A DNA stretch of 64,000 nt from contig CAYRHY010000001.1 in the NCBI GenBank assembly GCA_964424235.1, forward strand, positions 2,830 through 66,829. Direction: 5' to 3'. The notes below the pieces were generated by a model that was not told the origin of the DNA, did no database searches, and saw nothing but the letters and a program-made list of their open reading frames with translations. Source of the stretch: an uncultured Candidatus Saccharibacteria bacterium. Its GTDB lineage: Bacteria; Patescibacteriota; Minisyncoccia; Phycocordibacterales; SBAW01. Shown piece after piece: positions 501 to 15,486 of the stretch (positions are counted from its first letter, which is position 1; every line of letters starts with the position of its first letter). The translations under genes were made by a program, and so were the position numbers.

Positions 501-1925
501 CTATCCTAGCATAGGCGCTATGTGTTTTTTGAGGAATGCGACGAGCTCTGCTATTGATATACGCTCCTGCTCACCCGTATCGCGATTGCGCAGCGTAACA
601 GTGTCCTTATATTCAGGCTTCTCGCCAAGTGTGTCGAAGTCGATAGTGATGCAGTACGGGGTGCCGATTTCATCTTGGCGGCGATAGCGCTTCCCTATAT
701 TGCCGTTGTCATCCCACACAATTTGCGGGATCTCCTTCTTAAGATTGCTGTATACCTCGCGCGCCTTCTCTACCAACTCGGGCTTGTTTTTCAGAAGTGG
801 GAACACCGCGGCTTTAATAGGCGCTACACTCGGCTTAAATTTCAGATATACGCGCTTCTCTCCACCAAGATCGTCTTCTGTATACGCAGAGGCTAAAACC
901 GCCAACAAGGCACGCTCAACACCAAAAGACGGTTCGATAACGTGTGGAATAAATGGCTCCTCCCCTTCTTCTCGATAGGAAAGATCAGCGGTAGAGCCTG
1001 TTTGGTGCGCTGTAAGATCGAAGTTGGTGCGGTATGCCAACCCAAAAAGTTCCTTGCGACCAAATGGAAAATCAAATTCAAAATCTATGGTGCGCTTTGA
1101 GTAATGGGCTCTATCTTCTGCGGCTACTTCAAGCTCATGTACACCCTCCTGTTGTATGCCGATTGCTTGTATAAACTCGTGCACATCCTTGCGCCAGTTT
1201 TCAAAATGTTTTTCCCAACTATCCGGTCGAACAAAGTACTCGACTTCCATCTGTGAAAATTCGCGGGAACGGAATATAAAATCACGTGGCGCAATTTCAT
1301 TGCGAAACGCCTTACCTATCTGGGCGACACCGAACGGCAGCTTTGGGTGAAGCGAATCCAGCACATTCTTAAAGTTCACAAAAATACCTCCTGCTGTTTC
1401 TGGGCGAAGATAGGAGATGGAACCTTCAACCGCTCCGATCTGAGTTTGAAACATCATGTTAAATTGTCGTGGCTGCGTCCAATTATGATGCCCACCAGAA
1501 GGACATTTTATCTTGAGATCATTCAGTATGATTCTTTGCGCTTCTGGATCGGCAGGAAGCACAGAATCACCCTTTACTCGAGCAATAAGAATATCTGCTC
1601 GATCCTTTTGGTGACATTTTTCGCACTCCACAAGCGGGTCAGCAAACCCAGCTACATGACCTGATGATTCCCAAACCTTAGGATGCATGAGGATGGCGGC
1701 GTCTACGCCATACATATCATCACGACTCTCAACAAACATGCGCCACCAGAGGTTTTCAATATTTTTCTTCAGTGCTACGCCAAGCGGACCATAGTCCCAC
1801 GTACCGGCCAGGCCGCCATAAATTTCAGATCCTTGAAATATAAAGCCGCGGCGCTTAGAAAGCGCGACTATTTTCTCCATAGTGTCGTTAGCTGCCATAT
1901 GTGCTACTTTACTGCTTCGGCGCAA
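501..1925 (-). CDS. glyQS: Glycyl-tRNA synthetase, class II homodimeric (alpha2) type
   Basis: 474 aa; MEKIVALSKRRGFIFQGSEIYGG N-terminus, class II motifs and C-terminal anticodon-binding domain typical of archaeal/eukaryal-type GlyRS. True start may be the internal MAANDTMEKIV. Confidence 0.9.
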   Translation of the reverse strand: MRRSSKVAHMAANDTMEKIVALSKRRGFIFQGSEIYGGLAGTWDYGPLGVALKKNIENLWWRMFVESRDDMYGVDAAILMHPKVWESSGHVAGFADPLVECEKCHQKDRADILIARVKGDSVLPADPEAQRIILNDLKIKCPSGGHHNWTQPRQFNMMFQTQIGAVEGSISYLRPETAGGIFVNFKNVLDSLHPKLPFGVAQIGKAFRNEIAPRDFIFRSREFSQMEVEYFVRPDSWEKHFENWRKDVHEFIQAIGIQQEGVHELEVAAEDRAHYSKRTIDFEFDFPFGRKELFGLAYRTNFDLTAHQTGSTADLSYREEGEEPFIPHVIEPSFGVERALLAVLASAYTEDDLGGEKRVYLKFKPSVAPIKAAVFPLLKNKPELVEKAREVYSNLKKEIPQIVWDDNGNIGKRYRRQDEIGTPYCITIDFDTLGEKPEYKDTVTLRNRDTGEQERISIAELVAFLKKHIAPMLG

Positions 1926-3888
1926 TATTTGCCATATTAGCTGTGTAACTTGCAGAGTCTCCTGAAAGCGCAGTGGTTGGTGCAGGCGCGCTCGCAGTGA
2001 TGCCGACTTGTGCGAAACGATCTTGCCCAGTGAACCCCGTTGCGTTCATGAGCACAGGTGTGCCGCCTACCTGTGACGTACTTGGGGTGATAGCAACTTG
2101 GAATGCAGCGCTCTTAGCCGCGGCGCTATAGCCGGTACCCGCCTTAAGGTCTCCCAGGCTCCAGGTCACCGTGCGCGTGCCAGAGTCATAGGTAATACCA
2201 CTTCCCTGCGCTGCCGCAACAAATTGCACATACGGAGGTAGTGTCGCCTGTGCTACTGCGTTTGCAATAGTGTTTGATGAATTTTTTACTGTCCATTGGA
2301 TGGTGTACGTAGTCGTTTTTTCAGCCACCGGCGGCATGGGGCCCGCGTTTTGGAATGGGCCCGAAAAGTGGAGCGCCTGTGCGGTGATACTAGCAGCCGA
2401 AGCGATAGAGGCTTCTATGGTCGCAGCTGAAGAGACTGTTTCGGGCACCCCAGACTGACCTTCGCGCACACCCGACACACCAACATTCAGGCTCACGGTT
2501 GGGTTTACATACACCGTCCCACCCGCACCAGGCGCGAGAGTGGAGAACGTAAACTGCTCAGTGCCCGAGCCTCCCGGCGGGATAGTCGCAAGATTTTGGT
2601 CTTGGTCCTTCGACCAGATGATAGTTTGATTTTGGGATTGATAAAATCCGTTTGCCGCATTTATAGAGTTTGTATCGATCATGGGGCCGGCGAATGAGAG
2701 GTGCAGCTCGAGGTTAGAGACGGGCACCGAAAGATTGTTCTGCCACGTGACGGTACCTTGTACGGTTTGTTGCCCTGCGATAGATACAGACTTCCCTGTC
2801 TTCCCATTGAGCGCGATACTGGTGGTTACGAATGGGCGGTGCACAGTGAGCGTCTGTGGCACAGTAATAAATGGCACTTTGATAGTGGTATCTGTCGCAT
2901 CCGCGACCGGTCCCGTCACAAAACGAAATACGCGCTCCTCACCATCTTGTCCATCAATAGTGCCGGTGAGATGTATTGTTTTGGTATCACCAGGTTGTAG
3001 AGTGCCCAGGCGCCACATAGTGCCACCTGTGTCTGCCGCTGGGTTGGTAGCAATAACAGAGAATCCAAATGGATACTGCCCTTGGAGCACCACATCAGCT
3101 ATAGGCGAGGTTGCGTTACTGGTTACCGTAACGTCCATGCTAAATTGCTCGCCGGAGATAGCCTCAGCGGGTGCATCAACTGAAATTGATACAGGCGAAG
3201 AGCCTAGCGTGAAATTTGCTTCGGCCGGTTTTTGAAAAATAGAGTTAGAGCCAGGCACCGTGTACGAAAGGTTTACACTCAATTTTTGTGATGAACCTTC
3301 TTTGCCATAAAACACAGCAGTTGCCGTGCGCTTAATTTGTTGACCTGGTGATAGTGCGCCGATTGAAATCTTGTCGTGGTTAAGTGGTTTTGACTGGTCG
3401 TTTGGGTCACGCGTACCCTCTGGATAGTCAATAGAAAGCTCAGCCGTCTGCAGCGGTGACTGGTTACGATTATCGATAATAATTTCAAAGGTCGCCGGCT
3501 TCCCACCATCGATAATCGAAGAGGAGATAACTTGCACATCAATATTTTTTGGTGAAATAGTGTTTCCTCCATAAAAAATGATATACCCCGCGGCTCCACA
3601 GGCAGTCAAAAAGAAGAGGAGTGACGTAATGAAGAACTTCACCGCAAATGACATACCTTTCTTTTTCATATCAACGGGGCGCAGCGTGTCGACATCAATC
3701 GGCCGCGAGCCTGCACTCTCTATTGTAGTATCCTTCCAAGCTACCGGCGGATGAATATCTTGCATCGGTGAGAGCGGCGAGCGTTCATCAGGGTTTGCCG
3801 CAGCAGGTTTTTCACGCGAATAGAGAGCGTCTTTAAGCTCCTCTATTGAGTCTTTCTTCTTGTCCCCCTTACCTGGCGCCATACACAA
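1909..3888 (-). CDS. Large membrane-anchored surface protein with repeated beta-rich extracellular domains (hypothetical)
   Basis: 659 aa; N-terminal cytoplasmic tail then one TM helix (FFITSLLFFLTACGAAGYIIF), followed by long Thr/Ser/Gly-rich repeated segments; no catalytic motif recognised. Confidence 0.45.
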   Translation of the reverse strand: MCMAPGKGDKKKDSIEELKDALYSREKPAAANPDERSPLSPMQDIHPPVAWKDTTIESAGSRPIDVDTLRPVDMKKKGMSFAVKFFITSLLFFLTACGAAGYIIFYGGNTISPKNIDVQVISSSIIDGGKPATFEIIIDNRNQSPLQTAELSIDYPEGTRDPNDQSKPLNHDKISIGALSPGQQIKRTATAVFYGKEGSSQKLSVNLSYTVPGSNSIFQKPAEANFTLGSSPVSISVDAPAEAISGEQFSMDVTVTSNATSPIADVVLQGQYPFGFSVIATNPAADTGGTMWRLGTLQPGDTKTIHLTGTIDGQDGEERVFRFVTGPVADATDTTIKVPFITVPQTLTVHRPFVTTSIALNGKTGKSVSIAGQQTVQGTVTWQNNLSVPVSNLELHLSFAGPMIDTNSINAANGFYQSQNQTIIWSKDQDQNLATIPPGGSGTEQFTFSTLAPGAGGTVYVNPTVSLNVGVSGVREGQSGVPETVSSAATIEASIASAASITAQALHFSGPFQNAGPMPPVAEKTTTYTIQWTVKNSSNTIANAVAQATLPPYVQFVAAAQGSGITYDSGTRTVTWSLGDLKAGTGYSAAAKSAAFQVAITPSTSQVGGTPVLMNATGFTGQDRFAQVGITASAPAPTTALSGDSASYTANMANIAPKQ

Positions 3889-3900
3889 AAGTATACACGA

Positions 3901-4473
3901 CTAGAGCCCTGTAGCGCTCAGAGAAGCATTGATGATGCGCACGAGCGCGCTGCGCGTAGCATGCGCCTGCGAGAGCGTCTCTAAGGAGTAACTATCTTCA
4001 AGCAAAAATGGTGCTAATTCTGCAGAGTGCGGCACATACCCCAGACTAGCAAGAAGACGAAGCACGAGTACACACTCAAGTGCCTGAAGATCTTCAGGGG
4101 GAGCTTTTGCGAGTGCTAAAAACCCATTAACAGTGAGTGCGAAAAGTTCTGGAGACTGCTCTTCCCCACGTACCAAGCGCAAGAGCAACCGCGCAACCTT
4201 TCCCTGCCCCGCAGTAGCACCCCCCACAGCTGCAATGTGTTCGATATGCTCAACACCAGTGAGTTTCCAGTCGTGTTTACCGCGAACCAAACTATAACGC
4301 GCGAGTGTAAGCGGCTCGAGTCCATAGCGCAATTTCGACACCTCTTTGCGCGCGGAGCGCGCGGAGGCACGCACAAGCCCCAACTCCTCGGTCAGAAGTG
4401 CAATCTGTGTATTAGATTCTCCTGCGCCGCGCTTTCCTAACACCACCCCACGCGTCACGTGTATCTTATGCAT
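3901..4473 (-). CDS. recO: DNA repair protein RecO-like (short form)
   Basis: 190 aa; N-terminal OB-fold signature GVVLGKRGAGESNTQIALLTEELGLVRASARSARK resembles RecO N-terminal domain; stop overlaps ileS start region. Confidence 0.5.
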   Translation of the reverse strand: MHKIHVTRGVVLGKRGAGESNTQIALLTEELGLVRASARSARKEVSKLRYGLEPLTLARYSLVRGKHDWKLTGVEHIEHIAAVGGATAGQGKVARLLLRLVRGEEQSPELFALTVNGFLALAKAPPEDLQALECVLVLRLLASLGYVPHSAELAPFLLEDSYSLETLSQAHATRSALVRIINASLSATGL

Positions 4474-7400
4474 CCTTCTCCAGAGTCAGCGTGAAGGGAA
4501 ACGGCGCAAATGTTTTTTCACCACCCGCTTCAACCGAGATACTGTCGAGATTCGTCTCTTCAACAATAATATTCTCAAACTTCTCAAAAAACTGCTCTCC
4601 CTCTAGCGTGGTTGCGACGGTGAGGCGCGGGCGGTCAGCAATCGTGAGTTTTTCTTGCTTGCGTAAATCTTGAATAGCGCGGATAAGGTCACGCAGCAAC
4701 CCCTCTTCACGCAACTCATCGGTGAGCGTAGTGTCGAGCAGTACTTCTTCCTTCCCTGTTTTTGTATCAACACACACCTCTTTAACATTCACTTCGTCAG
4801 ACAAAATATCCAGTAGTGTGTCTTTGCTGGTGAATGATTGCTCGCCAATAGTAAGTGTCGCGAGTGGCTGGCGGATCTTTATACTTGCTTTCTCCCGCAA
4901 CTGCAGTGCTTGTGATGCTATGATGCGCACCTTTTTCATATCTTCCAGCAGTGTGCTATCTATTTTTGATGCCTCAGGCCACTGCGTCAGGTGCACACTC
5001 ACTGGGTCTTGTGAATCCTTCATGCGCTGATATAAATCTTCCGCATAAAACGGCATGACTGGAGCCATCACACGAGCGACTGTACAGAGTACATAGCGTA
5101 GTGTTGCAAGTGCTTCGTCTTTTTCCTTCCCTTCGTCTTTGAAACGATCGCGTGAACGGCGTAGATACCAGGTCGAAAGATCATCAACAAATTGCATGAG
5201 TGGTCGCGTCGCCACATCAAGTTCATACGCTTCAAACCCTGCAGTGGTATCACGGATCAACTCACCCAAACGCGAGAGCACCCAACGGTCGAGCGTATTT
5301 TCGGAAGGAGAAGATTCTACTTCCTTTTTTGAAGCATACAGCTCATAAAAGCTGCGTACATTATCAAGACGCATGAGGAGTTTTTTAGACACTTCCTCTA
5401 CCCCGCGCGCCGAGAAACGCAGATCCTCACCACGAATAACCGCTGATGAGAGGAGATAGTAGCGCATGGAGTCTGCCCCGAAGCGCTCAACCAACTCCAT
5501 AGGGTCAGGATAATTTTTTAATCGCTTACTCATTTTTTGACCATCCTCGGCGAGCACCAAACCATTCGTGACCACCGCCTTGTATGGGCTCTTTCCAAAC
5601 AATGCCACGCCAAGCACGATGAGCGAATAGAACCAACCGCGCGTTTGATCGATCGACTCAGCAATGAAGTTCGCTGGATATCCTTTCGCAAACAATCCGA
5701 AACCTCTCTTTGGGTTAAACTCATCGGTAGTGTGTGGATAGTGATGCGACGCAAATGGCATCGACCCACTTTCAAACCAGCAGTCAAACACATCAAGCAC
5801 CCGCTTCCATTCACCGCCAATAGCATCACCCAAAGGCACCTCATCAATGTACGGTCGGTGCAAATCAAGCTCAAACTTATCATTGCGCGGATAGGAAATG
5901 AATTCCAGTTCACGCCATGACGCTGGATCGAGTTTAGCCTCGTGCTTGATCTTGTGATGCGGGGTGCGGGTCGCGACCTTCTCCATTAGCCATGTCGGTA
6001 CCCCGTGCGAGACGATGAGAATATTTTTTGCAGTGTAGCGACGCTCAATGTCAAAAAGGAAATCACCCACCCGTGCATAGACCTGCGCATACGTCTCACC
6101 GCCAACCGCAGCCTTATTAAATTTGTCCGACAGTGTTGCAAAAATAGCTTGCCACTGTGCTATCGGTGCGCCATTCTTCTCGCCAAAGTGCACCTCCGCC
6201 AGGCGTGTATCGGTCATGATAGCTGACGACGCGAGCCCCAACTCTTTTGCTACGAGCTTTGCTGTTTCTTGCGCACGCGCGATAGGAGACGCAACGATCA
6301 TCGTGATGCCCGCGCCTTTAAGCTCACCTGCTGTTTTACGCACCATCTCTTTTCCTTTTTCGGTAAGATGATTTTCAATATCATTAGTCGAATTTACAAA
6401 TCCTTCGACATTACTGCGCGCTTCACCGTGACGCATCATGAAGTAGCGATTCCCGGAGCGGCGCACCATAGAGAGGAGCTCATCAACCGAGCCCACCGCT
6501 TTTACCTCTTTCGTTTTAGTGTTGCGCCACACCGGGATAGGTGCGCCCCAATAGCGGCTGCGCGAAATGGCCCAATCCGGAGCGCTCTGTAGACCATTAT
6601 TGAAACGGCCGCGCCCAATATGCTCAGGCACCCAATGGACTTTTGCGTTTTCATCAATGAGATCTTTTTTGATTTTCTGTACATCAACAAACCACGAGTT
6701 TGCTGCCCAATTTAAGAGCGGTGTGTCGCAGCGCCAACAATGTGGGTAGGAGTGTGTGAGTGTTTCGTGTTTAAAAAGTCGGCCACTGTTCTGGAGATGT
6801 TCGACAATTTTTTGATCGGTCTCTTTGTGACGACCTTTTGGTTTAACCGGAAGCCCCCCAAAATCGGTAACCGCAGGAATAAACTTCCCGTCTTCCCCCA
6901 CATGATGAATGAGCGGGATTTTTTCTTTCTGTGCTAGCTCAAGATCTTCAGCACCATACGCGGGGGCGAGGTGCACCACGCCCGTACCGTCCGTGAGTGT
7001 GACATACGGTGCGGCGTACACCTTCCATGCATGGGTCTTGTGCTTGTGGAGTGCTTCGCGGAAATAGTTAAACGGCGGTTCATACGACATCCCAACCAAC
7101 TCTGAACCCAACACTTCACCCTCTGTCTCTGCTGCATCACCAAACACCTTGGATACCAACTCTTTGGCAACCACTAAAAACTCCTCACCCACCCGCACCT
7201 TCACATACGCAGCATCTTTATTGACCGCGGCGGCAACATTGCCCGGCAAGGTCCATGGTGTCGTCGTCCACACCAACAACGATGTGCCTGGCTCATCAAT
7301 CAGCGGCAATTTTACAAACACCGCAATATCTTCAATGTCTTGATATCCAAGCGCCACCTCAAAGTTTGAAAGAGTCGTGCCGCAACGTGGACACAAGTGC

Positions 7401-8011
7401 ATCGCTTTGAATCCTTCGTATACAAGCTCACGATCATAGAGATTCTTAAACGCCCACCACACCGACTCGGTATAGGAGGCATCCATCGTTTTGTAGTCGT
7501 GTTCCATGTCGGCCCAACGACCCATGCGCGGGATGATGCGGCGCCAATCGGCCACATCTTTCATGATACTTTCGCGCGCAGCAGCATTAAATTTTGCTAT
7601 GCCATACTCTTCGATGTCGCGCTTCGATTTAAATCCAAGCTCTTTCTCAACTAGGTTTTCAACTGGGAGTCCGTGACAATCCCACCCCCACTGGCGTGCA
7701 ACATGATACCCCTGCATGGTGCGGTAGCGCGGGATAGCATCTTTGAGTGCTGACTGCAGCAGGTGGCCATAGTGGGGCAACCCGTTGGCAAATGGTGGGC
7801 CATCATAAAACACATATTCACCTTTGGGCGCCTTTTTTTGGAGCGACTGTTCAAATATCTTCTCACGGTTCCAAAACGCGAGCACTTCCTCCTCACGCGC
7901 TGCAAGCGCCGACTTCGGCTTCTCAGCCTCGTGGTGAAGCTCCTCACCCCCCTGCTTCCTGTCATCTACCATATAAAAAAGACTATACGCGAAATGAGCC
8001 TCCTTATCCAC
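4466..8011 (-). CDS. ileS: Isoleucyl-tRNA synthetase, type 2 (eukaryote-like), with an inserted histidine-phosphatase (PGAM-like) domain
   Basis: 1181 aa; YDGPPFANGLPHYGH (HIGH), WGWDCHGLPVE, editing domain, DWAISRSRYWGAPIPVW, DVFDCWFESGSMP, KMSKR. Between PIPVW (residue ~495) and DVFDCWFESG (residue ~740) lies ~190 aa with RHG (FMMRHGEARSN) and IVSHG motifs of the histidine phosphatase superfamily. Confidence 0.9.
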   Translation of the reverse strand: MDKEAHFAYSLFYMVDDRKQGGEELHHEAEKPKSALAAREEEVLAFWNREKIFEQSLQKKAPKGEYVFYDGPPFANGLPHYGHLLQSALKDAIPRYRTMQGYHVARQWGWDCHGLPVENLVEKELGFKSKRDIEEYGIAKFNAAARESIMKDVADWRRIIPRMGRWADMEHDYKTMDASYTESVWWAFKNLYDRELVYEGFKAMHLCPRCGTTLSNFEVALGYQDIEDIAVFVKLPLIDEPGTSLLVWTTTPWTLPGNVAAAVNKDAAYVKVRVGEEFLVVAKELVSKVFGDAAETEGEVLGSELVGMSYEPPFNYFREALHKHKTHAWKVYAAPYVTLTDGTGVVHLAPAYGAEDLELAQKEKIPLIHHVGEDGKFIPAVTDFGGLPVKPKGRHKETDQKIVEHLQNSGRLFKHETLTHSYPHCWRCDTPLLNWAANSWFVDVQKIKKDLIDENAKVHWVPEHIGRGRFNNGLQSAPDWAISRSRYWGAPIPVWRNTKTKEVKAVGSVDELLSMVRRSGNRYFMMRHGEARSNVEGFVNSTNDIENHLTEKGKEMVRKTAGELKGAGITMIVASPIARAQETAKLVAKELGLASSAIMTDTRLAEVHFGEKNGAPIAQWQAIFATLSDKFNKAAVGGETYAQVYARVGDFLFDIERRYTAKNILIVSHGVPTWLMEKVATRTPHHKIKHEAKLDPASWRELEFISYPRNDKFELDLHRPYIDEVPLGDAIGGEWKRVLDVFDCWFESGSMPFASHHYPHTTDEFNPKRGFGLFAKGYPANFIAESIDQTRGWFYSLIVLGVALFGKSPYKAVVTNGLVLAEDGQKMSKRLKNYPDPMELVERFGADSMRYYLLSSAVIRGEDLRFSARGVEEVSKKLLMRLDNVRSFYELYASKKEVESSPSENTLDRWVLSRLGELIRDTTAGFEAYELDVATRPLMQFVDDLSTWYLRRSRDRFKDEGKEKDEALATLRYVLCTVARVMAPVMPFYAEDLYQRMKDSQDPVSVHLTQWPEASKIDSTLLEDMKKVRIIASQALQLREKASIKIRQPLATLTIGEQSFTSKDTLLDILSDEVNVKEVCVDTKTGKEEVLLDTTLTDELREEGLLRDLIRAIQDLRKQEKLTIADRPRLTVATTLEGEQFFEKFENIIVEETNLDSISVEAGGEKTFAPFPFTLTLEKDA

Positions 8012-8101
8012 TTTTCATTTCCCCTACAGTTTGGTTAGGTGCACACAGTACGACCTTTGATGGGTAGGTCTCTAGCATGCACACATGCTGACCCTGGGTT
8101 T

Positions 8102-8141
8102 CTTTTTTTATAAAAACAATTCCCGCCATTGCGGGCGGGAA
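8102..8141 (-). terminator. Rho-independent terminator downstream of the 8148-8513 gene, upstream of ileS
   Basis: 8-bp GC stem TTCCCGCC/GGCGGGAA (8120-8141) followed on the minus strand by UUGUUUUUAUAAAAAAAGA. Confidence 0.5.
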
Positions 8142-8147
8142 GAGTTA

Positions 8148-8513
8148 TCAGGCTACGCCAACCTGAAGCAACTGGTGCACTTTAGCTGGAGCATAGCGTT
8201 CAAGCCAATACGCGATGAGGGTGTCTAATTCAACCTCGTTAACAAGAAGACACATAGAGCTGCCACAAAAAATCCTCACGAGCGGGACACTGTTAAAACA
8301 TTCAAGCTCGGCACGTATTCTGCCTATTTGCATAGCTTGCTCTAGGGTTTGAGGTAAGGGAAGACCCGACCTGTTGTGTAAACATGCGGCAAGTCCATAC
8401 AGTTCCCCGGGCTGAAATGAAAGAGTGACTTCACGCCGAGCTACATCTATCCACAATGTGCCACCTATATTTTTTTCCGTGTGCGCATAGTTGGCAACCA
8501 CTTTTGGCGTCAT
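8148..8513 (-). CDS. Hypothetical protein
   Basis: 121 aa ORF with plausible composition, terminator immediately downstream; no motif recognised. Confidence 0.35.
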   Translation of the reverse strand: MTPKVVANYAHTEKNIGGTLWIDVARREVTLSFQPGELYGLAACLHNRSGLPLPQTLEQAMQIGRIRAELECFNSVPLVRIFCGSSMCLLVNEVELDTLIAYWLERYAPAKVHQLLQVGVA

Positions 8514-8584
8514 GAATTCCTCCCAGTTTTATCCTCCACTCTTACTTAACTACCGTATCGCTTGAGAGTCAACAAACAGCACCT

Positions 8585-10552
8585 TTACATCTCCTCAGGC
8601 GTGGGGATGCCTAGCAGTGTGAGACCTTTTTGCATAGTTTGCTCAAATGCTTTCGTGAGTAGTACAGCGTACTCTTGCTCGGGACTTCCAATGACACGCT
8701 CAGCCGCATACCATGAGTTAAAAAGCGAAGCGAGCTCAGTGAGGAAGGTCGTAACATAGTGCGGCTCAAGCTCGCGCGCAGCGCGGGCAACCACTTCAGG
8801 GAAATGGATGAGAGTGCGTTCGAGCGAAGAACGCTCCAGCGACTGAGCCGCAGACTCAGAACGCTCGAGACCCGAAGCAGCAAAAGCGGGTGCCGTCGCG
8901 TCCCCTTGTTGACCTGCAGCAGAGGCACCTGTTTTTGCTGCGTCACTTTTTGCTTCAAAACCTTCAGCTTTTCGCAGCAGCGAGCGAGCGCGTGTGAGCG
9001 CATATTGGAGATAGGGCCCCGAGTCGCCTTCAAGAGAGAGCGATTTCTCGGGGTCAAAGACAATATCCTTCCCGCTCCCCTGTTTCAGGACCGCAAATTT
9101 AACCGCACCTACCGCCACCTGCTGTGCGATCTTGTTTGCATCCTTTAATTCACGCCCGTGCATCCTCTCTTTGGACGCTTCGGTTAAATCATTGAGTAAT
9201 GACTCGCCGGTAATCACATTTCCTTTGCGCGACGACATCTTTCCTGACGCAAATCGCATCATGCCGTGAGAAACATGCTGCGTTTTGTTTGCAATATCCT
9301 GTACTTCGGGTAACTCTTTTGCCGCAGCGAGCATAACTTTAAAATAATCATTCTGCTCGTTAGCAGTAATGGTTATTGAAAGGTCAAGACTGGGCTCAGT
9401 TTCTTTTTTTAATTGCAAAAGGCCTAGATCTTTCGCCTCGTAAGTGGGCGTATTATGAGAGGTTATAAATACACGAGTATGCAACCCAACTCTTTCTCCT
9501 TTAAAAACAATAGCACCTTTACTTTCTTCAAAAACATCCCCGATGTGTTTTTTTACGAGCATCAAACCTTCGGGGGTAGATTTACTTTCGAAAAAGAAAT
9601 GTTCGAACTCAGTTCCAAGAATCTTATATAGTTTTTCGAAATGCTCTAAGGAAACATTTCTCCCATCCCTATATATCAACAGAAGCTCCGAGTTACTAAC
9701 CTCTTTATTTTCTTGTTCCTCAGCTAAAACTTTATAGATTTCTCGATTAAGATCATCTATCTCTTTCTTAGCTCCACTATCGGGCATCTCATACCAAGCA
9801 TTGCCAAACTGATAAAAAATATCCCAATTATTTTTTATATATGCATCTGGTGTCTCTCCTAAATGGAAATTGGTGGGTCTATTTTTTAGATCCATCATAT
9901 CCTTGTGCTGGCAACCCCAAATTGCTTTGGCGACATGCAAACCAACATCACCCTGATAGTTCACGCGTATAACGTTTGCCCCAGCAGCTTCAAGTGTTCG
10001 TGCAATAGCCTCGCCAATTGCGTTGCTCATCAAGTGGCCTATGTGAAATTTTTTAAATGGGTTTGGGTCAGTGTATTCCACCATCACCGTTTTGCCAGCA
10101 TAGATAGCATTGTTTGCCCAGTCGTCTTTTGTTGCAGCATCAGCAATCTCTTTTGTAACTGTCTTTTTTGATAGATAAAAATTGATGAAACCAGGGCCTG
10201 CGATTTCTATTTTTTCAATAACGGAGTGAAAAATTTCTTGAGAAAATGTCTGGAAGCCTACAGCGCTGCTTTCTGCGCTGAGGCGGCCCGAGGACTTTTC
10301 GGAAAGAAGTTTTTCACGAAGTTCTTGTGCAAGTTCTTTAGGATTTTTACCTACTTTTTTACTCGCCACGAGCGCAACGTTGGTTGCATAGTCGCCATGA
10401 GAAAGATCACTAGGACGCTCAACCACAAAATCCACCTCAAAGATACCGAGCTCCGCGAGTGCCTGTTTAACTGCTTGGGAAATCTGCTCCTGCATAGTGC
10501 TTACACTATCAGAAACCGGCCCGTATAAAAAGATAGAGGCCAGGTTGTACAA
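8585..10552 (-). CDS. argS: Arginyl-tRNA synthetase
   Basis: 655 aa; PNPFKKFHIGHLMSNAIGEAIAR (HIGH region), class I catalytic core, C-terminal DALR anticodon-binding domain; low-complexity Ala/Ser/Glu insert before the DALR domain. Likely true start MQEQISQAVK near 10495. Confidence 0.9.
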   Translation of the reverse strand: MYNLASIFLYGPVSDSVSTMQEQISQAVKQALAELGIFEVDFVVERPSDLSHGDYATNVALVASKKVGKNPKELAQELREKLLSEKSSGRLSAESSAVGFQTFSQEIFHSVIEKIEIAGPGFINFYLSKKTVTKEIADAATKDDWANNAIYAGKTVMVEYTDPNPFKKFHIGHLMSNAIGEAIARTLEAAGANVIRVNYQGDVGLHVAKAIWGCQHKDMMDLKNRPTNFHLGETPDAYIKNNWDIFYQFGNAWYEMPDSGAKKEIDDLNREIYKVLAEEQENKEVSNSELLLIYRDGRNVSLEHFEKLYKILGTEFEHFFFESKSTPEGLMLVKKHIGDVFEESKGAIVFKGERVGLHTRVFITSHNTPTYEAKDLGLLQLKKETEPSLDLSITITANEQNDYFKVMLAAAKELPEVQDIANKTQHVSHGMMRFASGKMSSRKGNVITGESLLNDLTEASKERMHGRELKDANKIAQQVAVGAVKFAVLKQGSGKDIVFDPEKSLSLEGDSGPYLQYALTRARSLLRKAEGFEAKSDAAKTGASAAGQQGDATAPAFAASGLERSESAAQSLERSSLERTLIHFPEVVARAARELEPHYVTTFLTELASLFNSWYAAERVIGSPEQEYAVLLTKAFEQTMQKGLTLLGIPTPEEM

Positions 10553-10568
10553 CCTGGCCCGAACACGC

Positions 10569-11075
10569 TCATATTGCTTTAACGATCAAGACTTGCCAGA
10601 CAACCAAGACATTCATGCTCAGCATCTGCAGCGTATGAAGCATGCACACCGTGAAGGGTTCGCGCCCATTCTTCTGCGCAACTCTCGTCGCATAGCGCAT
10701 AAGGAACCACACCAGAAGTACCCCACTAAGAAAATCTGCAGCAAGAAGGTACGCAAAGGGTAAAAGCAGCCGAAACACAGCTAGCCACAAGAATAATACG
10801 CCGGTAATAATGCTTATATTCAGAAGAGCAGCTTTCAGTGCTCGACAGGTCGCCACCCAGGGGGCAAGTAGTGCTGCGAAAGTACACAACACTCCTGACA
10901 GTATGCACACCGCCAGCAAGTTATCGGTAATAGCCGCCTTAAAATGTAGCGCATACAAAAGATATAGCGAGACAGCTGCGCCAGTTACCAACACGTAACT
11001 CGCGATAAGCGCTATTTGCGCGTTGTAGATTGCAACACGAAGCCACGCATACGCCCAAGCCATAACACCCCCCAA
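10569..11075 (-). CDS. Hypothetical integral membrane protein
   Basis: 168 aa, 4-5 predicted hydrophobic helices. Confidence 0.35.
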   Translation of the reverse strand: MGGVMAWAYAWLRVAIYNAQIALIASYVLVTGAAVSLYLLYALHFKAAITDNLLAVCILSGVLCTFAALLAPWVATCRALKAALLNISIITGVLFLWLAVFRLLLPFAYLLAADFLSGVLLVWFLMRYATRVAQKNGREPFTVCMLHTLQMLSMNVLVVWQVLIVKAI

Positions 11076-11121
11076 TCAGCCAGTGTTTTCACCCAATAAA
11101 CTTCTAGCGACACTGTACCGC

Positions 11122-12216
11122 TTAGAGATTTGTTGTCGAGAGCTTCGGAGCCCCTTCAACGACAGTGAAAGCTATGCGCCCAATGAGCGCTCCTCGTCCT
11201 GTTTCCACATCACAGCGCCAATCTCCTGGTGTTAGACCCTGCTCGATACTCCAGCCGCGATAACCTTCTTCCCTACCACCACTGATGGGAAATTGTGTGA
11301 GCGCCTGCGTCTCCCATTTTTTTGTTTCTGGATTGTATTTTTCCCAGCGGTGCGCGATAGGGGTGGTGAGTTTACCTGGCGCAAAGACCGCGCTATAGCA
11401 GTAAGCGCTGTCGCCAAGCGTAATGGTGTATGTCGCTGAAGTGTCGCGCCAAAATACTCCCCACGCAGGCCTCTCATACGTCGCGGTGTACAAGTGTTCC
11501 TGTGCATCCGCTGCGGGTAGTGGTGCAAATGAATGATATACACCGATCGATTTCACCGAGAGCGGCACAGGCGGCACAATGTTAAGAAAATACAGTCCGC
11601 TGTAAAGCCCAAAAATAACTGCAATAAGAATGGATACTTCATACGTTTTATGCGGCTCCTTTTTACGAAATACAAATACGTGGAATGCCCACAAGAGGAG
11701 TGCGACAATGCCGAGACTCACCGCGCCACTGAGTAAAAATACCCACGCGCCGATTTGATGCACAACAAATGTCGGTATAGAGATGATGCAGTAGGTAAAA
11801 AGAAGGTAATAGTAGATAGCAAGATTGAAACGCAATTGGTCGTAGCGTGTTTTGAGAAACTCATTCCCCAGCGCGAAACCGGTGAGTATACAGAAGAACA
11901 AAAGACTCCCGCCAAATGTCCCGCTTTTGCCATAGAGAATGAGCATATTCCCTGCCAGACCTCCGAAACAAAACTGGAGGATAAAGATAAGGAGCAGTGG
12001 CCGCAAACTTGGCTTGCGCGCCGAGCGGATATTGATGAGCACAATAAGAAACGCCGAGAGCGTGAGGTAGAAGAGGAGGAGAATATTGTCGAGCACATTG
12101 TCAGGGCTCTTCGCGAGAAAAAGGTCGACCACAAAGCCGCCGATAAGCGACGAGTAGTTGAACGTGCGCTCCCACCGCTGCCAAAATTTAATGAACCGCT
12201 TCTTCAGCCCAAACAT
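11122..12216 (-). CDS. Membrane protein with N-terminal multi-TM region and C-terminal beta-rich domain (DUF2914-like, tentative)
   Basis: 364 aa; ~6 TM helices then soluble C-terminal domain; family assignment from architecture only. Confidence 0.45.
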   Translation of the reverse strand: MFGLKKRFIKFWQRWERTFNYSSLIGGFVVDLFLAKSPDNVLDNILLLFYLTLSAFLIVLINIRSARKPSLRPLLLIFILQFCFGGLAGNMLILYGKSGTFGGSLLFFCILTGFALGNEFLKTRYDQLRFNLAIYYYLLFTYCIISIPTFVVHQIGAWVFLLSGAVSLGIVALLLWAFHVFVFRKKEPHKTYEVSILIAVIFGLYSGLYFLNIVPPVPLSVKSIGVYHSFAPLPAADAQEHLYTATYERPAWGVFWRDTSATYTITLGDSAYCYSAVFAPGKLTTPIAHRWEKYNPETKKWETQALTQFPISGGREEGYRGWSIEQGLTPGDWRCDVETGRGALIGRIAFTVVEGAPKLSTTNL

Positions 12217-12225
12217 CTTCCTATT

Positions 12226-13497
12226 TTACCCTATGAACGACTCGGGGATTGGGAATTGTGCGCACAAAGATTTTATTTCAGTATGGATTGCGTCAAGTTT
12301 CGCTTGGTCTTTCGTGTTTTTGAGCGCATCGATCATGAGCTCGGCCACTTGGGCACTCTCCTTTTCTGTGAATTTGCGCGTCGTGATGGCGGGCGTACCA
12401 AAGCGAATACCCGAAGGATCCATCGGCGAACGAGGATCATCAGCGATCACATTTTTATTAAGCGTGATGCCAACCGAGTCGAGCACCACCTCCGCCTCTT
12501 GTCCGGTGATATTGAGCGAAGAAAAGACATCCGCCAAGATGAGATGGTTGGAAGTGCCACCCCCAAGCATACGAATATGAGTATTGCGAAAGACTTCTTC
12601 CATCGCTTTCGCATTCTTTAAAATTTGCGTCGAGTAATTTTGGAAACTCGGATGGAGTGCCTCGCCAAAGGCGACCGCCTTAGCTGCGATAACATGCATC
12701 AGTGGGCCACCTTGGAGGCCTGGGAACACTGCTTTATCTATCTTCTTCCCTATCTCCTCGCTTTCGCGAGTAAGGATGATGCCGCCGCGCGGGCCCCGCA
12801 GTGTCTTGTGCGTTGTAGAGGTGATCACATCAAAACCAGCGTCAAAGGGATTCTTTACCGCCTTGCCTGCTATAAGCCCGGCGATGTGTGCTGCGTCCAT
12901 GACGGCATACGCCCCCACTTCGCGCGCAATAGCAACAATTTTTTCATAGTCTAATTCGCGCGAATATGCCGAGAAGCCGGCGAGCACAATTTTTGGTCGG
13001 TGCTCTTTGGCAACCTTGAGCATCTCGTCGTAATCAATCTCGCCCGTCTCAACATTCTTCATCTTATAGCGCACAAAGTTGAAGAACTTAGTGATATAGG
13101 TCACGGGGTGGCCGTGCGTGAGGTGGCCACCATGAGAGAGGTCCATACCCAGCACGGTGTCGCCCGGCTGTAGTAGTGCCATGTACATCGCAACATTAGC
13201 GTTGGCGCCCGAGTGTGGCTGCACATTGGCAAATGAGGCCCCAAAGAGCTTCTTTGCTCTCTCGATCGCGATCTCCTCTGCCTTATCTGTAAATGTTTGG
13301 CCACCGTAGTAGCGCTTGCCGGGATAGCCTTCAGAATATTTATTCGTCAAAATCGAACCTTGTGCTTCGCGTACCGCGCGTGACACATAATTCTCCGACG
13401 GGATGAGCTCTAGCCCCTCGCGCTCGCGGGTCTCCTCCCCTTCTAGTACCGAAAAAAGCTCCTGGTCCTGTTTTTGAATATATGAATAATCTTCCAT
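12226..13497 (-). CDS. glyA: Serine hydroxymethyltransferase
   Basis: 423 aa; SENYVSRAV, YSEGYPGKRYYGG, PLP-lysine motif TTHKTLRGPRGG. Confidence 0.95.
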   Translation of the reverse strand: MEDYSYIQKQDQELFSVLEGEETREREGLELIPSENYVSRAVREAQGSILTNKYSEGYPGKRYYGGQTFTDKAEEIAIERAKKLFGASFANVQPHSGANANVAMYMALLQPGDTVLGMDLSHGGHLTHGHPVTYITKFFNFVRYKMKNVETGEIDYDEMLKVAKEHRPKIVLAGFSAYSRELDYEKIVAIAREVGAYAVMDAAHIAGLIAGKAVKNPFDAGFDVITSTTHKTLRGPRGGIILTRESEEIGKKIDKAVFPGLQGGPLMHVIAAKAVAFGEALHPSFQNYSTQILKNAKAMEEVFRNTHIRMLGGGTSNHLILADVFSSLNITGQEAEVVLDSVGITLNKNVIADDPRSPMDPSGIRFGTPAITTRKFTEKESAQVAELMIDALKNTKDQAKLDAIHTEIKSLCAQFPIPESFIG

Positions 13498-13567
13498 ACA
13501 GGGGATTGTAGCACTTTGGGTTTCTCATAAATAGAGTGAGCCGCCCTTAGGCGGCCCAAGTTAAAAC

Positions 13568-14287
13568 TTACTTTAAGGAGCAGATTATACTCATCACCTC
13601 CTCATGAATATCTGCACAAGTACGCATAACATTGTTTGGTGCGCAGTTGACGATGAACCAATCGTCTCTTTCTCGTGCGAGACGTGAATACAAACTAATT
13701 ACATGCTGAAGATACTGCTCGTTTCTCTCATGTTGATCCTTTGCTTTGTCCGCCATAAGTGCACGCGAGACTTCGAGCGGGACGTATAAATATATTACTC
13801 GATCGGGTTTTGGCAGTTGCAATTGTTGATATTCAAGATTTTCCAACCACTGTATATATTCAATTTGCTTCATCGTGGCGGAAAAATGAGTTATTTTCTC
13901 TCCACCAAACTCTGATGACTGCCAGTAAGTATATTTTGCCCCTTGATGTGCAAGGTTACTCGGCACGTACCGATTGCAGATAACTGAACCTAAAGCCAGC
14001 GCTCCTCGTATGGCATCTCTTGCCTCTCGCCGATCCCACGCATACGGAAAGGATGCAATGTACGGATCAAGGTTTACAAAATCACCCCACTTACCCGCAA
14101 GACACTCGCCCACAAGGCGGCCCCCATCTGAAGTTTTGTATTGGGGGAAATCAAAGTAAGAAGTTGCTTGTCCGAATGCTTGCAGCGCTGCCACAGCCAT
14201 TGTTGACTGCGTTTCCTTGCCCGAAGCGTCAGAGCCGTCGATAACAAAAAGCTTGCCTGCCCATGTATCAGTCATAATCACCTCCAT
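13568..14287 (-). CDS. tmk: Thymidylate kinase
   Basis: P-loop KLFVIDGSDASGKETQ; ORF extends to 14368 but likely start is MEVIMTDTW (14287) or MTDTW (14275). Confidence 0.7.
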   Translation of the reverse strand: MEVIMTDTWAGKLFVIDGSDASGKETQSTMAVAALQAFGQATSYFDFPQYKTSDGGRLVGECLAGKWGDFVNLDPYIASFPYAWDRREARDAIRGALALGSVICNRYVPSNLAHQGAKYTYWQSSEFGGEKITHFSATMKQIEYIQWLENLEYQQLQLPKPDRVIYLYVPLEVSRALMADKAKDQHERNEQYLQHVISLYSRLARERDDWFIVNCAPNNVMRTCADIHEEVMSIICSLK

Positions 14288-14364
14288 TGTGCTACCAAGA
14301 CTCAAGTTACCAAACTTGTTGCAAAAGAAAAACCGCGACCCCCTTGCGAGGGTTGCGGCACACA

Positions 14365-15486
14365 TCACGCAGTAGCAAAGTGCTTCGAAAGTGCTGCACC
14401 TTGATTTTGTCCTGCGTAACTTGGTTTGCCAACTTCATAGAGCACCTCAGGGCGAGACTTCATGCGCTCGAACCTGACGCGCGCAATGGTTTGCCGGTGC
14501 TGGATGGTTATGTTCTCGTGAGGGGTTATCTCCAGAGTAATGGGACGCCCTGTGCCCTCCCCTTCAACTCCCCATCCCCACCCAGGGTCAATGAACCCCG
14601 CTGCGTGCGAACGGAGTTCACCAAAACGGGGGTCAATAGCTCGCAGCTCTGCTGAGACAGTTGCCCCAAGGCACAAGTGTTCGTATGTGCTCAGGATGTA
14701 GAAACTGCCTTTGCGCAAATCTATCTCGCCATTTCTAACCTCGATTGGCTGGAAAAAATCAGAAGGTGAATAGTTTAGTTTACCGTAATCGAGTTCAGTA
14801 GTACTGCCCCGACATTCCCATGCAGGCATGCCAGGCTCCACTCGGACAGTCATAAATAGCGAGTCAGAGTGGCGAGCAAATTCGTCCGGCTTGAAACGCT
14901 GTCCATTTGGATGATAGAACAGTCCGTACTGTGCAGCCTCAAGGCTAACCTCAAGACTATCGAGAAAGTTCTTACCATCGAAAAGACGCAGTTGGGTAAC
15001 CGCCTTCCCCGGACGAACAAGGATCGGGAAGCTCTCTGGGCGCAAGAGTGCCCACACTTCCCCTTCATAGCCCTCTGGGACGAGTGCGTCATACATAGGC
15101 ACGCCGTCGGCGACGACGCGACAGAGAAGATTGATGCGTCCTGTCGTTGATTTTGGGTTGAAGTAACCGTATACCTCTGGCGGCAAGCGAAACTCAGCCT
15201 GTATACGCACAAGATATGGCACACCGACCTCAAGCCGGTTGTTCAGGTCGAAGCGAGTGCCGTAACGTTCCAGATACGAACGTACGGTTCTGCCTGCTTG
15301 CGGAAGAAATACTCGGTTGAGGCGATAGGCTTCTGTACCAAGCGGTAAGTCAATCGATGCGGGGTTTACAAACTCCTCATCGATACCAACGATATGCCCT
15401 CGCAGAATTCGCTTGAGCACATGATCAGGCAAAACACCTTTCACAGATACCTCCACACATGGTGCAACTGCACGAGACAATACCAC
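14365..15486 (-). CDS. dCTP deaminase-like protein, long (~370 aa) form
   Basis: 373 aa; dUTPase/dCTP-deaminase fold motifs SIDLPLG and GFIDPGWGWG, about double the length of canonical Dcd. Confidence 0.55.
   Translation of the reverse strand: MVLSRAVAPCVEVSVKGVLPDHVLKRILRGHIVGIDEEFVNPASIDLPLGTEAYRLNRVFLPQAGRTVRSYLERYGTRFDLNNRLEVGVPYLVRIQAEFRLPPEVYGYFNPKSTTGRINLLCRVVADGVPMYDALVPEGYEGEVWALLRPESFPILVRPGKAVTQLRLFDGKNFLDSLEVSLEAAQYGLFYHPNGQRFKPDEFARHSDSLFMTVRVEPGMPAWECRGSTTELDYGKLNYSPSDFFQPIEVRNGEIDLRKGSFYILSTYEHLCLGATVSAELRAIDPRFGELRSHAAGFIDPGWGWGVEGEGTGRPITLEITPHENITIQHRQTIARVRFERMKSRPEVLYEVGKPSYAGQNQGAALSKHFATA

Follow-up and report, generated by a model that had tools for sequence, protein, structure and literature searches.

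Within a 64,000-nucleotide stretch of an uncultured Candidatus Saccharibacteria genome (contig CAYRHY010000001.1), to which we refer as the window, the gene ileS encodes a type-2 isoleucyl-tRNA synthetase (IleRS) with a histidine phosphatase (HP) domain nested in its catalytic core. Judged from sequence comparison, the HP stands at the tip of connective peptide 3 (CP3), where other IleRS have a zinc knuckle, and the domain is complete and apparently active. In related lineages the same HP is a separate gene directly upstream of ileS, and a distinct group of HPs occupies the homologous site of valyl-tRNA synthetases (ValRS). The structural and evolutionary case for the nested HP, its split-gene counterpart and the ValRS parallel is well supported, and our search of the full-text literature found no HP nested in the core of a class Ia synthetase, no split-gene counterpart and no ValRS parallel. 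Few enzymes have been studied as thoroughly as the aminoacyl-tRNA synthetases, whose known accessory domains edit, bind tRNA or mediate complex formation; we know of no embedded synthetase phosphatase with an intact active site.

A histidine phosphatase domain at the tip of CP3

The synthetase body aligns with Thermus thermophilus IleRS (1ILE) on both sides of the insert, residues 39-514 corresponding to residues 13-478 of the Thermus chain and residues 715-1042 to residues 488-819, with the approximately 200 residues in between (aa 515-714) occupying the place of about nine Thermus residues at the tip of the CP3 zinc hairpin. An earlier reading of this DNA from the letters alone (the sequence-only reading) had placed an HP domain within the catalytic core, at positions 5880-6455, and had counted about 245 residues between two conserved core segments. 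The alignment to type-2 IleRS confirms the insertion point: these positions lie inside the insert as delimited here (Table 1), and the distance from W495 (...SRYWGAPIPVW) to D740 (DVFDCWFESGSMP) is 244 residues.

The Thermus segments flanking the insertion site, WVCQACG... and ...ELACACGG, are the two halves of the CP3 zinc-binding motif. The window IleRS is without all four CP3 cysteines and shows WRNTKTKEV... and ...LGDAIGGEW at the knuckle positions, the CxxC being gone from the first arm (WRNTKTKEVKAVGSVDELLS) and the CxC from the second arm (LDLHRPYIDEVPLGDAIGGEW). CP3 has been described as the connective peptide linking CP2 and the second half of the Rossmann fold, with a zinc motif present in Thermus and absent in Candida and S. 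aureus IleRS (PMC7191050).

The Pfam profile His_Phos_1 (PF00300) matches the insert with E=4.9e-33 and 114.9 bits against a gathering cut-off of 21.7, covering profile positions 2-181 of 194. The motifs that the sequence-only reading had taken as HP hallmarks, the RHG in FMMRHGEARSN (aa 524-534) and the SHG in NILIVSHGVP (aa 663-672), are part of this match, and the profile score together with the predicted fold led us to reject a chance occurrence. In the full-length AlphaFold2 (AF2) model of the window IleRS (mean predicted local distance difference test score, pLDDT, 85.6; predicted template-modelling score, pTM, 0.75) the blocks for residues 511-720, i.e. the insert including both linkers, reach a pLDDT of 90-98 and are the best-modelled part of the protein; the insert modelled alone reaches 91.9. 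A discrete HP fold is hence predicted, as the earlier reading had expected, and Foldseek matched the isolated insert to GpgP/Rv2419c, PspA, PhoE and CobC (E about 1e-13, template-modelling (TM) score 0.7-0.78, root-mean-square deviation 2.4-3.5 Å).

We also rejected an assembly chimera, an intein or a mobile insertion. The gene is a single open reading frame (ORF), the GC content is steady across the insert (0.50-0.52), 120 of 120 homologues and 80 of 80 species loci are built alike, and the Pfam search returned no intein or transposase match in the window IleRS.

The synthetase body is a complete type-2 IleRS

The isoleucine--tRNA ligase equivalog TIGR00392 scores 893.7 bits against a cut-off of 621.4, its match falling into two stretches split by the insert. 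Pfam recognises tRNA-synt_1 (the class I catalytic domain), His_Phos_1, Anticodon_1 and DUF5915 (the latter with E=1.1e-17). The class I motifs are intact, with the HIGH variant HYGH at aa 80-83, KMSKR at aa 826-830 and DQTRGWF at aa 788, as are the editing motifs of CP1, TTTPWT at aa 249 and GTGVVH at aa 342. Sequence matches in the PDB range from about 1e-205 to 1e-213 for Thermus IleRS (1ILE, 1.8e-213), P. megaterium IleRS2 (8C8U, 7e-211) and eukaryotic cytoplasmic IleRS (yeast 8WND, 1.6e-207), compared to 5.5e-91 for the S. aureus type-1 enzyme (1FFY). The AF2 model superposes best on IleRS2 8C8V (TM score on the target, TMt, 0.78). The type-2 assignment made in the sequence-only reading is borne out by these matches, by TIGR00392 and by DUF5915. 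The MupA and MupB models reach about 670-700 bits against a cut-off of 1900, which puts the window IleRS outside those acquired mupirocin-resistance families. The family of IleRS with a GNAT domain (NF040702) was rejected for the window protein, which scores 336.3 bits against a cut-off of 1999 and has no acetyltransferase match in Pfam.

The gene is one unbroken ORF of 1181 aa counted from GTG 8011. The true start is probably ATG 7970-7972 (M14), giving 1168 aa, which we favour because the homologue consensus begins there. The start is ambiguous: a strong Shine-Dalgarno-like motif, AAGGAGG, lies within the first codons after GTG 8011, 26 nt before this ATG.

The insert is a branch-1 histidine phosphatase outside every characterised family

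Sequence searches with the insert yield the same relatives as Foldseek, PspA, PhoE, CobC and GpgP being 23-26% identical. The top NCBIfam model, NF005567 (bifunctional RNase H/acid phosphatase), reaches 83.6 bits against a cut-off of 326, and the specific equivalogs of small phosphatases stay below their cut-offs as well (CobC 65.5 bits versus 162.9, PspA 57.1 versus 350, SixA 39.8 versus 74.5, MSMEG_4193 46.7 versus 203.85). TIGR01258 was not seen among the best 25 of the 31 NCBIfam families matched. The glycolytic phosphoglycerate mutase (dPGM) was rejected as an identity, with NF038349 dPGM_arch at 79.1 bits versus 225, GpmB at 40.8 versus 261 and PRK01295 at 29.5 versus 316. By profile comparison the insert is therefore a member of branch 1 of the HP superfamily and of no characterised family, because its scores are far below the curated cut-offs for dPGM, CobC, PspA and SixA. 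The label PGAM-like, used in the sequence-only reading, holds for the fold and fails for the enzyme, the dPGM models being far below cut-off and the nearest relatives being PspA, PhoE, CobC and GpgP.

The active site and both linkers are conserved

Conservation was assessed in a MAFFT alignment of the query and its 120 nearest database relatives (61-94% identical), i.e. 121 sequences, and in a divergent set of 148 HP copies taken from representatives of 50%-identity clusters. In the former the catalytic residues are conserved to the extent given in Table 1 and N534 in 98%. In the latter the first Arg is kept in 146 copies, the nucleophilic His in 146, the second Arg in 148, Glu or Asp in 147 and the second His in 143, most of the remainder being gaps where a sequence end is truncated. 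Taken over IleRS-nested, free and TsaC-fused forms, more than 250 copies in total, the five catalytic residues are all near-invariant. A clean block of about 30 cap residues is missing in 35 of the 121 sequences (29%), with the catalytic Glu just before the cap being retained.

Mean identity to the query is 51% for the insert, 72-80% for the synthetase core and 41% for the C-terminal domain. Faster evolution than the core but with a preserved active site is the pattern expected under selection for catalysis. Both linkers are strongly conserved: on the N-side S519-G520-N521-x-Y523 (SGNRY) in 98-100% of the 121 sequences, on the C-side F704, P708, residue 709 (consensus His, Arg in the window protein) and N710 in 98-100%, followed by LDLHRPYID. 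This conservation, together with the high pLDDT, suggests the HP being held in one orientation on the synthetase and not on a floppy tether.

The nested form is widespread

All 120 nearest homologues carry PF00133, PF00300 and PF08264, and 119 carry also PF19302; the named hosts among them are Adlerbacteria, Nomurabacteria, Paceibacterota, Minisyncoccia and 'Patescibacteria group'. When one genome per GTDB species was scanned, at least 364 candidate relatives came up, of which 80 loci were kept for comparison, including Adler-, Nomura-, Kaiser-, Zambryski-, Lloyd-, Taylor- and Campbellbacteria. Upstream flank, HP and downstream flank lie within a single ORF in all 80, the closest being Adlerbacteria with 66-67% identity in the insert; by this comparison an Adlerbacteria-like lineage of the Parcubacteria (Paceibacteria) is the most likely source of the window. 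The survey of relatives suggested by the sequence-only reading recovers the same fusion in all 80. In 49 of these loci the gene is flanked, as it is in the window, by co-oriented genes for arginyl-tRNA synthetase (ArgRS) upstream and RecO downstream.

The HP-nested form is the normal IleRS of a very large bacterial radiation, with a parallel ValRS form in another branch of the candidate phyla radiation (CPR). Public databases already hold HP-bearing IleRS proteins, with the Pfam domain combination precomputed. The NCBI annotation pipeline PGAP labels these homologues only as 'class I tRNA ligase family protein', and our NCBIfam scan of the window protein turned up no model for an HP-bearing IleRS. 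Essential enzymes are left with this unspecific name presumably because the insert splits the model match.

A free phosphatase gene between argS and ileS is the split counterpart

An exhaustive HMMER search with the insert alone gave a list of the best 150 matches, 149 of which were classified. Of these, 107 are IleRS, whole or fragmentary, that have the insert at this site, and about 33 are apparently free-standing genes of about 190 aa, 40-48% identical to the nested copies. A word-indexed search with the insert alone yielded only three proteins, none a full-length fusion, and is not informative. One apparent free-standing gene (P0121) was rejected, being a fragment of a frameshifted nested IleRS: in its source locus L001 (ENA contig_54002) the IleRS-HP gene is split into at least four ORFs, probably by long-read frameshifts. 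In the same locus argS and ileS are separated by Cas1 and an IS605 OrfB-like gene.

Three of the free genes (P0160, P0162, P0191) lie each directly upstream of an insert-less IleRS of 962-984 aa in the order argS-hp-ileS-(orf)-recO, with gaps of 2-18 nt. Another (P0216) has a one-base overlap with the stop of argS, P0156 comes after argS with an ileS running towards it, and P0203 adjoins a gene resembling prolyl-tRNA synthetase (ProRS), a label given from sequence motifs alone. Scanning metagenomes with the free-HP alignment gave 80 loci, comprising 62 with a free HP ORF (179-235 aa), 17 nested forms and one in-frame ArgRS-HP. Counting an ArgRS as directly upstream at no more than 250 bp on the same strand, and taking as denominators the loci with room to see the gene, ArgRS lies directly upstream of the free hp in 42 of 48 loci, an IleRS ORF of 925-1018 aa directly downstream in 42 of 48, and both in 31 of 40; most exceptions have one gene in between. 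The gap from the HP domain to the IleRS ORF ranges from about -60 to +65 nt in the metagenome loci, an overlap of hp stop and ileS start being common. None of the 80 nested GTDB loci has a second hp. The insert-less IleRS beside a free hp still have the cysteine knuckles of CP3 (L082 reads KCG-CGH...LKCEKCG, and L085 and L093 are similar). In pairwise identity the free, nested and TsaC-fused HPs intermix, with means of 0.33-0.36 and frequent nearest neighbours across groups.

On this comparative evidence, the distribution is a Rosetta-stone pattern, some lineages having the HP as an operon partner translationally coupled to IleRS and others as a domain within IleRS. It points to the HP subfamily being a dedicated IleRS partner in Parcubacteria rather than an unrelated moonlighting activity, and HP and IleRS probably work together. 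The split/nested pattern predicts the free HP to bind the insert-less IleRS, and the HP to affect aminoacylation or tRNA integrity.

In the window, the slot which the free hp takes in relatives, between argS and ileS, holds an ORF of 121 aa (orf121, 8148-8513, minus strand). We rejected orf121 as a decayed HP: it has no match to the HP profile at E<=10, no Pfam match and no homologue in 96 related loci. It may represent an ORFan, or else no gene at all. The argS-hp-ileS neighbourhood of L093 and L082/L083 also contains a small gene for a NUDIX hydrolase, placed in L093 between argS and hp, and a gene with an AA_kinase domain, which we take to be UMP kinase, stands before argS in the same loci; both could be further functional associates.

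The phosphatase recurs at other sites and in other enzymes

Within IleRS the HP also occupies a second loop, which CWFESGSMPYA precedes and PADFIAEG.DQTRGWF follows (P0151, P0258), and a third site that separates the catalytic from the anticodon-binding domain (P0151), and it forms tandem pairs in CP3 (P0194, P0263). In two relatives (P0237, P0250; loci L089-L092) an HP of this subfamily is appended to the C-terminus of TsaC (threonylcarbamoyl-AMP synthase); the TsaC-HP gene P0250 overlaps the stop codon of an ileS that has no insert, and genes for the CCA-adding enzyme and tRNA-guanine transglycosylase (TGT) are nearby (L090-92). On one metagenomic contig (L111) ArgRS and HP share one uninterrupted frame of 729 aa with ileS directly after; this is either a real fusion or a lost stop codon or sequencing error.

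Other domains were seen in the IleRS of relatives. One of them (P0261, aa 746-869) bears, in the loop that follows CWFESGSMPYA, a domain resembling P-loop kinases (AAA_18/AAA_33); it matches no single family best, with APS kinase, shikimate kinase and Pnkp1 all scoring E of about 0.02-0.05. Another (P0180) has an IS200/REP-type Y1 transposase-like domain in its editing region (aa 340-461) and a GNAT domain after the HP, behind the second loop (aa 935-1063).

A ValRS with four HP copies (P0126) was used to search for further cases, and 71 of the best 120 ValRS clusters (including P0280-P0397) carry HP, 58 with one copy, 11 with two, one with three and one with four. Named hosts are Gracilibacteria and Peregrinibacteria, on contigs of up to 1.37 Mb, PGAP again giving only the name 'class I tRNA ligase family protein'. 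The main site, between WGHRIP and D(T/V)WF(D/S)S, is homologous to the CP3 of IleRS; a second one precedes W.ISRQ. The ValRS HPs form a separate sequence group, with a mean identity of 0.26 to the others and 0.33 within the group, and for this reason they represent, by sequence grouping, a separate acquisition. Their copies keep the first Arg in 79 of 79, the nucleophilic His in 79 of 79, the second Arg in 78 of 79, the Glu in 56 of 79 and the second His in 72 of 79.

Proposed function and alternative explanations

The explanation that we favour as a whole, and which we judge about equally probable to hold or to fail, is that of an IleRS with a nested, competent HP which is a dedicated partner of IleRS and acts on a product of adenylate formation. 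According to this model, the HP domain (about 185 residues) would form a phospho-histidine intermediate on H528 and hydrolyse the phosphoryl group while held beside the synthetic site of IleRS; the hp gene would have moved inside ileS in many lineages, including the window organism, and stayed a separate gene between argS and ileS in others. The substrate would be a phosphate-bearing product of adenylate formation, pyrophosphate (PPi) or AMP, the removal of which would pull Ile-AMP formation forward. This is the weakest step and a doubtful assignment, made because all enzymes attached to or beside the HP, i.e. IleRS, ValRS, ArgRS and TsaC, make an acyl-AMP and PPi; as is established enzymology, they turn ATP into acyl-AMP, releasing PPi and then AMP. 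CP3 is bordered by two conserved core motifs of the catalytic domain, WGAPIPVW and CWFESGS, the second of which contributes to the amino-acid pocket in the Thermus structures. Tandem HP copies fit a bulk catalytic role in which dosage counts.

Several points weigh against this model. Branch-1 histidine phosphatases classically hydrolyse phosphomonoesters, and to our knowledge PPi hydrolysis is undocumented for them; AMP hydrolysis would be wasteful for an organism probably salvaging nucleotides. Conserved synteny in compact CPR genomes is alone no proof of functional coupling, the TsaC and ArgRS fusions could be neutral read-through of neighbouring genes, and no hp adjoins the synthetase gene in the two loci of insert-less ValRS that we inspected, the split/nested pattern being seen for IleRS only. 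A missing pyrophosphatase is not established either, an H+-PPase having been reported in at least one Parcubacterium (PMC5220378).

The main rival regarding the substrate is a tRNA-end phosphatase, the HP stripping a 3'-phosphate, a phosphate derived from a 2',3'-cyclic phosphate or a pyrophosphate from the CCA end, or another tRNA phosphate, as a built-in repair or antitoxin activity that lets damaged or toxin-modified tRNA be charged. Enzymes of tRNA (IleRS, ValRS, ArgRS, TsaC) are the only ones to which the HP is joined or next to which it is encoded, with the CCA-adding enzyme and TGT being near in L090-92, and a phosphate at an RNA end is a phosphomonoester, as are the usual substrates of the superfamily. 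The capless state of 29% of the close homologues would leave an open site as in SixA-like protein phosphatases, the cap normally closing the pocket round small substrates, and the kinase beside the HP in P0261, with its weak PDB match to Pnkp1 (E=0.054), would resemble an end-healing pair of kinase and phosphatase. However, no histidine phosphatase is known to act on RNA ends, TsaC is without tRNA binding, the kinase-bearing variant is a single cluster in which APS and shikimate kinase score equally, and a need for such an activity in only IleRS and ValRS lacks an obvious reason; we regard this function as distinctly unlikely. The capless variants with their exposed site would also suit a protein phosphatase or regulator, the HP dephosphorylating IleRS or a partner, e.g. 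countering a HipA-like kinase toxin, or sensing phosphate. The superfamily includes the protein phosphatases SixA, PGAM5 and Sts, the SixA model aligns to the N-terminal 70 residues of the insert, and stoichiometric coupling by nesting or translation suits a role in cis; yet a kinase partner is not seen in the conserved neighbourhood, and a regulator acting in cis does not readily account for tandem copies. We hold this reading to be very unlikely.

A housekeeping phosphatase serving an unrelated metabolic step (PspA-, CobC- or GpgP-like, or the cell's phosphoglycerate mutase) might merely be co-expressed with ileS, having been an operon neighbour before it became an insert in a permissive surface loop. 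In favour of this, metabolic phosphatases are the nearest relatives that have been characterised, CP3 is a variable and peripheral sub-domain (PMC7191050), the same loops take unrelated domains elsewhere (GNAT, P-loop kinase, IS200-like transposase domain), the HP evolves faster than the synthetase core, and CPR genomes are compact with conserved synteny. From an upstream neighbour, though, an end-to-end fusion would be expected and not a transplant into an internal loop; both linkers are strongly conserved and confidently modelled, a different HP lineage was inserted repeatedly at the homologous CP3 site of ValRS with up to four copies, the HP falls well short of each specific family's curated cut-off (e.g. 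dPGM_arch, CobC, PspA), and hp stop and ileS start overlap often. We consider such hitch-hiking unlikely. That the HP is non-catalytic and merely stabilises the synthetase in place of the CP3 zinc knuckle, or mediates dimerisation, agrees with the nested forms having lost all four CP3 cysteines, which insert-less relatives retain, and with many free HPs being dimeric and copy numbers of 1, 2 and 4 occurring. The five near-invariant catalytic residues over more than 250 copies are instead the pattern expected if activity is selected, and loss of the Glu or the second His is confined to some extra ValRS copies; a purely structural role appears highly improbable.

Extending the favoured model beyond IleRS, HPs might be a hitherto unrecognised accessory catalytic module of CPR class Ia synthetases, recruited repeatedly (by IleRS of Parcubacteria from an operon partner, and independently by ValRS of Gracilibacteria and Peregrinibacteria at the homologous CP3 site, with up to four copies) and taking a direct part in the aminoacylation cycle via PPi/AMP hydrolysis or tRNA 3'-end repair, a generalisation we hold to be possible while leaning somewhat against it. 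Should the HP turn out to remove PPi or AMP, or to heal tRNA ends, this would be a new way for ultra-small, metabolically poor cells to support translation, and if it has a direct role in the aminoacylation cycle, these enzymes would be true bifunctional synthetase-phosphatases.

Genomic context and feature coordinates

The gene cluster belongs to a co-oriented run on the minus strand (501-15486) including a DUF11 repeat protein, RecO, IleRS-HP, ArgRS, DUF2914, serine hydroxymethyltransferase (SHMT), thymidylate kinase and dCTP deaminase, as well as a class II aminoacyl-tRNA synthetase (tRNA-synt_2b and HGTP_anticodon) which we take to be ProRS. The order ArgRS...IleRS-RecO-DUF11/CLIPPER is conserved in related loci. 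Within argS (8585-10552, minus strand) the GC content falls to 0.37-0.40 at 9250-10000, with about 0.50 around, and a low-complexity insert rich in Ala, Ser and Gln lies near the C-terminus of ArgRS, ahead of or inside the DALR domain, for which 141 residues align to 117 profile positions. Seven tRNA genes at the Rfam gathering score lie at 26822-57515; the Rfam search found no rRNA or other RNA family in the window.

Table 1. Features of the ileS locus; positions refer to the window, residues to the ORF counted from GTG 8011.
Feature	Position	Strand	Remarks
ileS, type-2 isoleucyl-tRNA synthetase with nested HP domain	4466..8011	-	Pfam, NCBIfam, PDB alignments
N-terminal IleRS part, aa 1-514: Rossmann half 1, CP core, CP1 editing, CP2, CP3 arm 1 (WRNTKTKEVKAVGSVDELLS)	6470..8011	-	domain names from PMC7191050
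Nested insert, aa 515-714: branch-1 HP domain and conserved linkers (SGNRY N-side; F..P(H/R)N..(Y/F)E C-side)	5870..6469	-	
Pfam His_Phos_1 match, aa 524-704	5900-6442	-	PF00300
RHG motif: R527, nucleophile H528, then G529	6425..6433	-	R527, H528 100% conserved in 121
R579, second phosphate-binding Arg (SPxxR motif)	6275..6277	-	100% conserved in 121
E606, putative proton donor (RLxE motif)	6194..6196	-	96% in 121; E or D in divergent copies
Cap sub-domain, aa 607-639	6095..6193	-	most variable part of insert
H669, second catalytic His (SHG)	6005..6007	-	99% conserved in 121
C-terminal IleRS part, aa 715-1181 and stop: CP3 arm 2 (LDLHRPYIDEVPLGDAIGGEW), Rossmann half 2 (CWFESGSMP, DQTRGWF, KMSKR), Anticodon_1, DUF5915	4466..5869	-	
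argS (ArgRS)	8585..10552	-	upstream member of argS-(hp)-ileS-recO cluster
recO	3901..4473	-	downstream member of same cluster; overlaps ileS stop by 8 nt

Comparison with known systems

The small branch-1 HPs PhoE/YhfR (1H2E, 1EBB), PspA (4IJ5/4IJ6), GpgP Rv2419c (4QIH) and CobC (6NRU, 6E4B) share with the window HP the fold, the size, the short cap and the R-H...R...E...H set; in contrast to them, the window HP is nested in another enzyme and the cap is deleted in 35 of 121 relatives. The bifunctional RNase H/acid phosphatase (NF005567, Rv2228c type) likewise has a CobC-like HP covalently joined to a nucleic-acid enzyme, but the fusion there is end-to-end and not nested, and the partner enzyme is a different one. 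The TsaC-HP arrangement of P0237 and P0250 resembles the relation of Sua5 to TsaC, with the HP following the TsaC core where Sua5 has its SUA5 domain; here the extra domain is HP and not SUA5, and the arrangement is absent from the window. The family ileS_w_GNAT (NF040702) is likewise an IleRS with an extra catalytic domain, and the relative P0180 combines HP and GNAT, whereas the window protein carries HP and no GNAT. Closest as a whole protein are the type-2 IleRS (1ILE; 8C8U/8C8V), eukaryote-like and mupirocin-resistant, which match the entire synthetase body with its HIGH/KMSKS-type motifs, CP1-CP3, anticodon domain and DUF5915 (TMt 0.78-0.81) and from which the window protein is set apart by the HP of about 200 residues in CP3 in place of the zinc-ligand cysteines.

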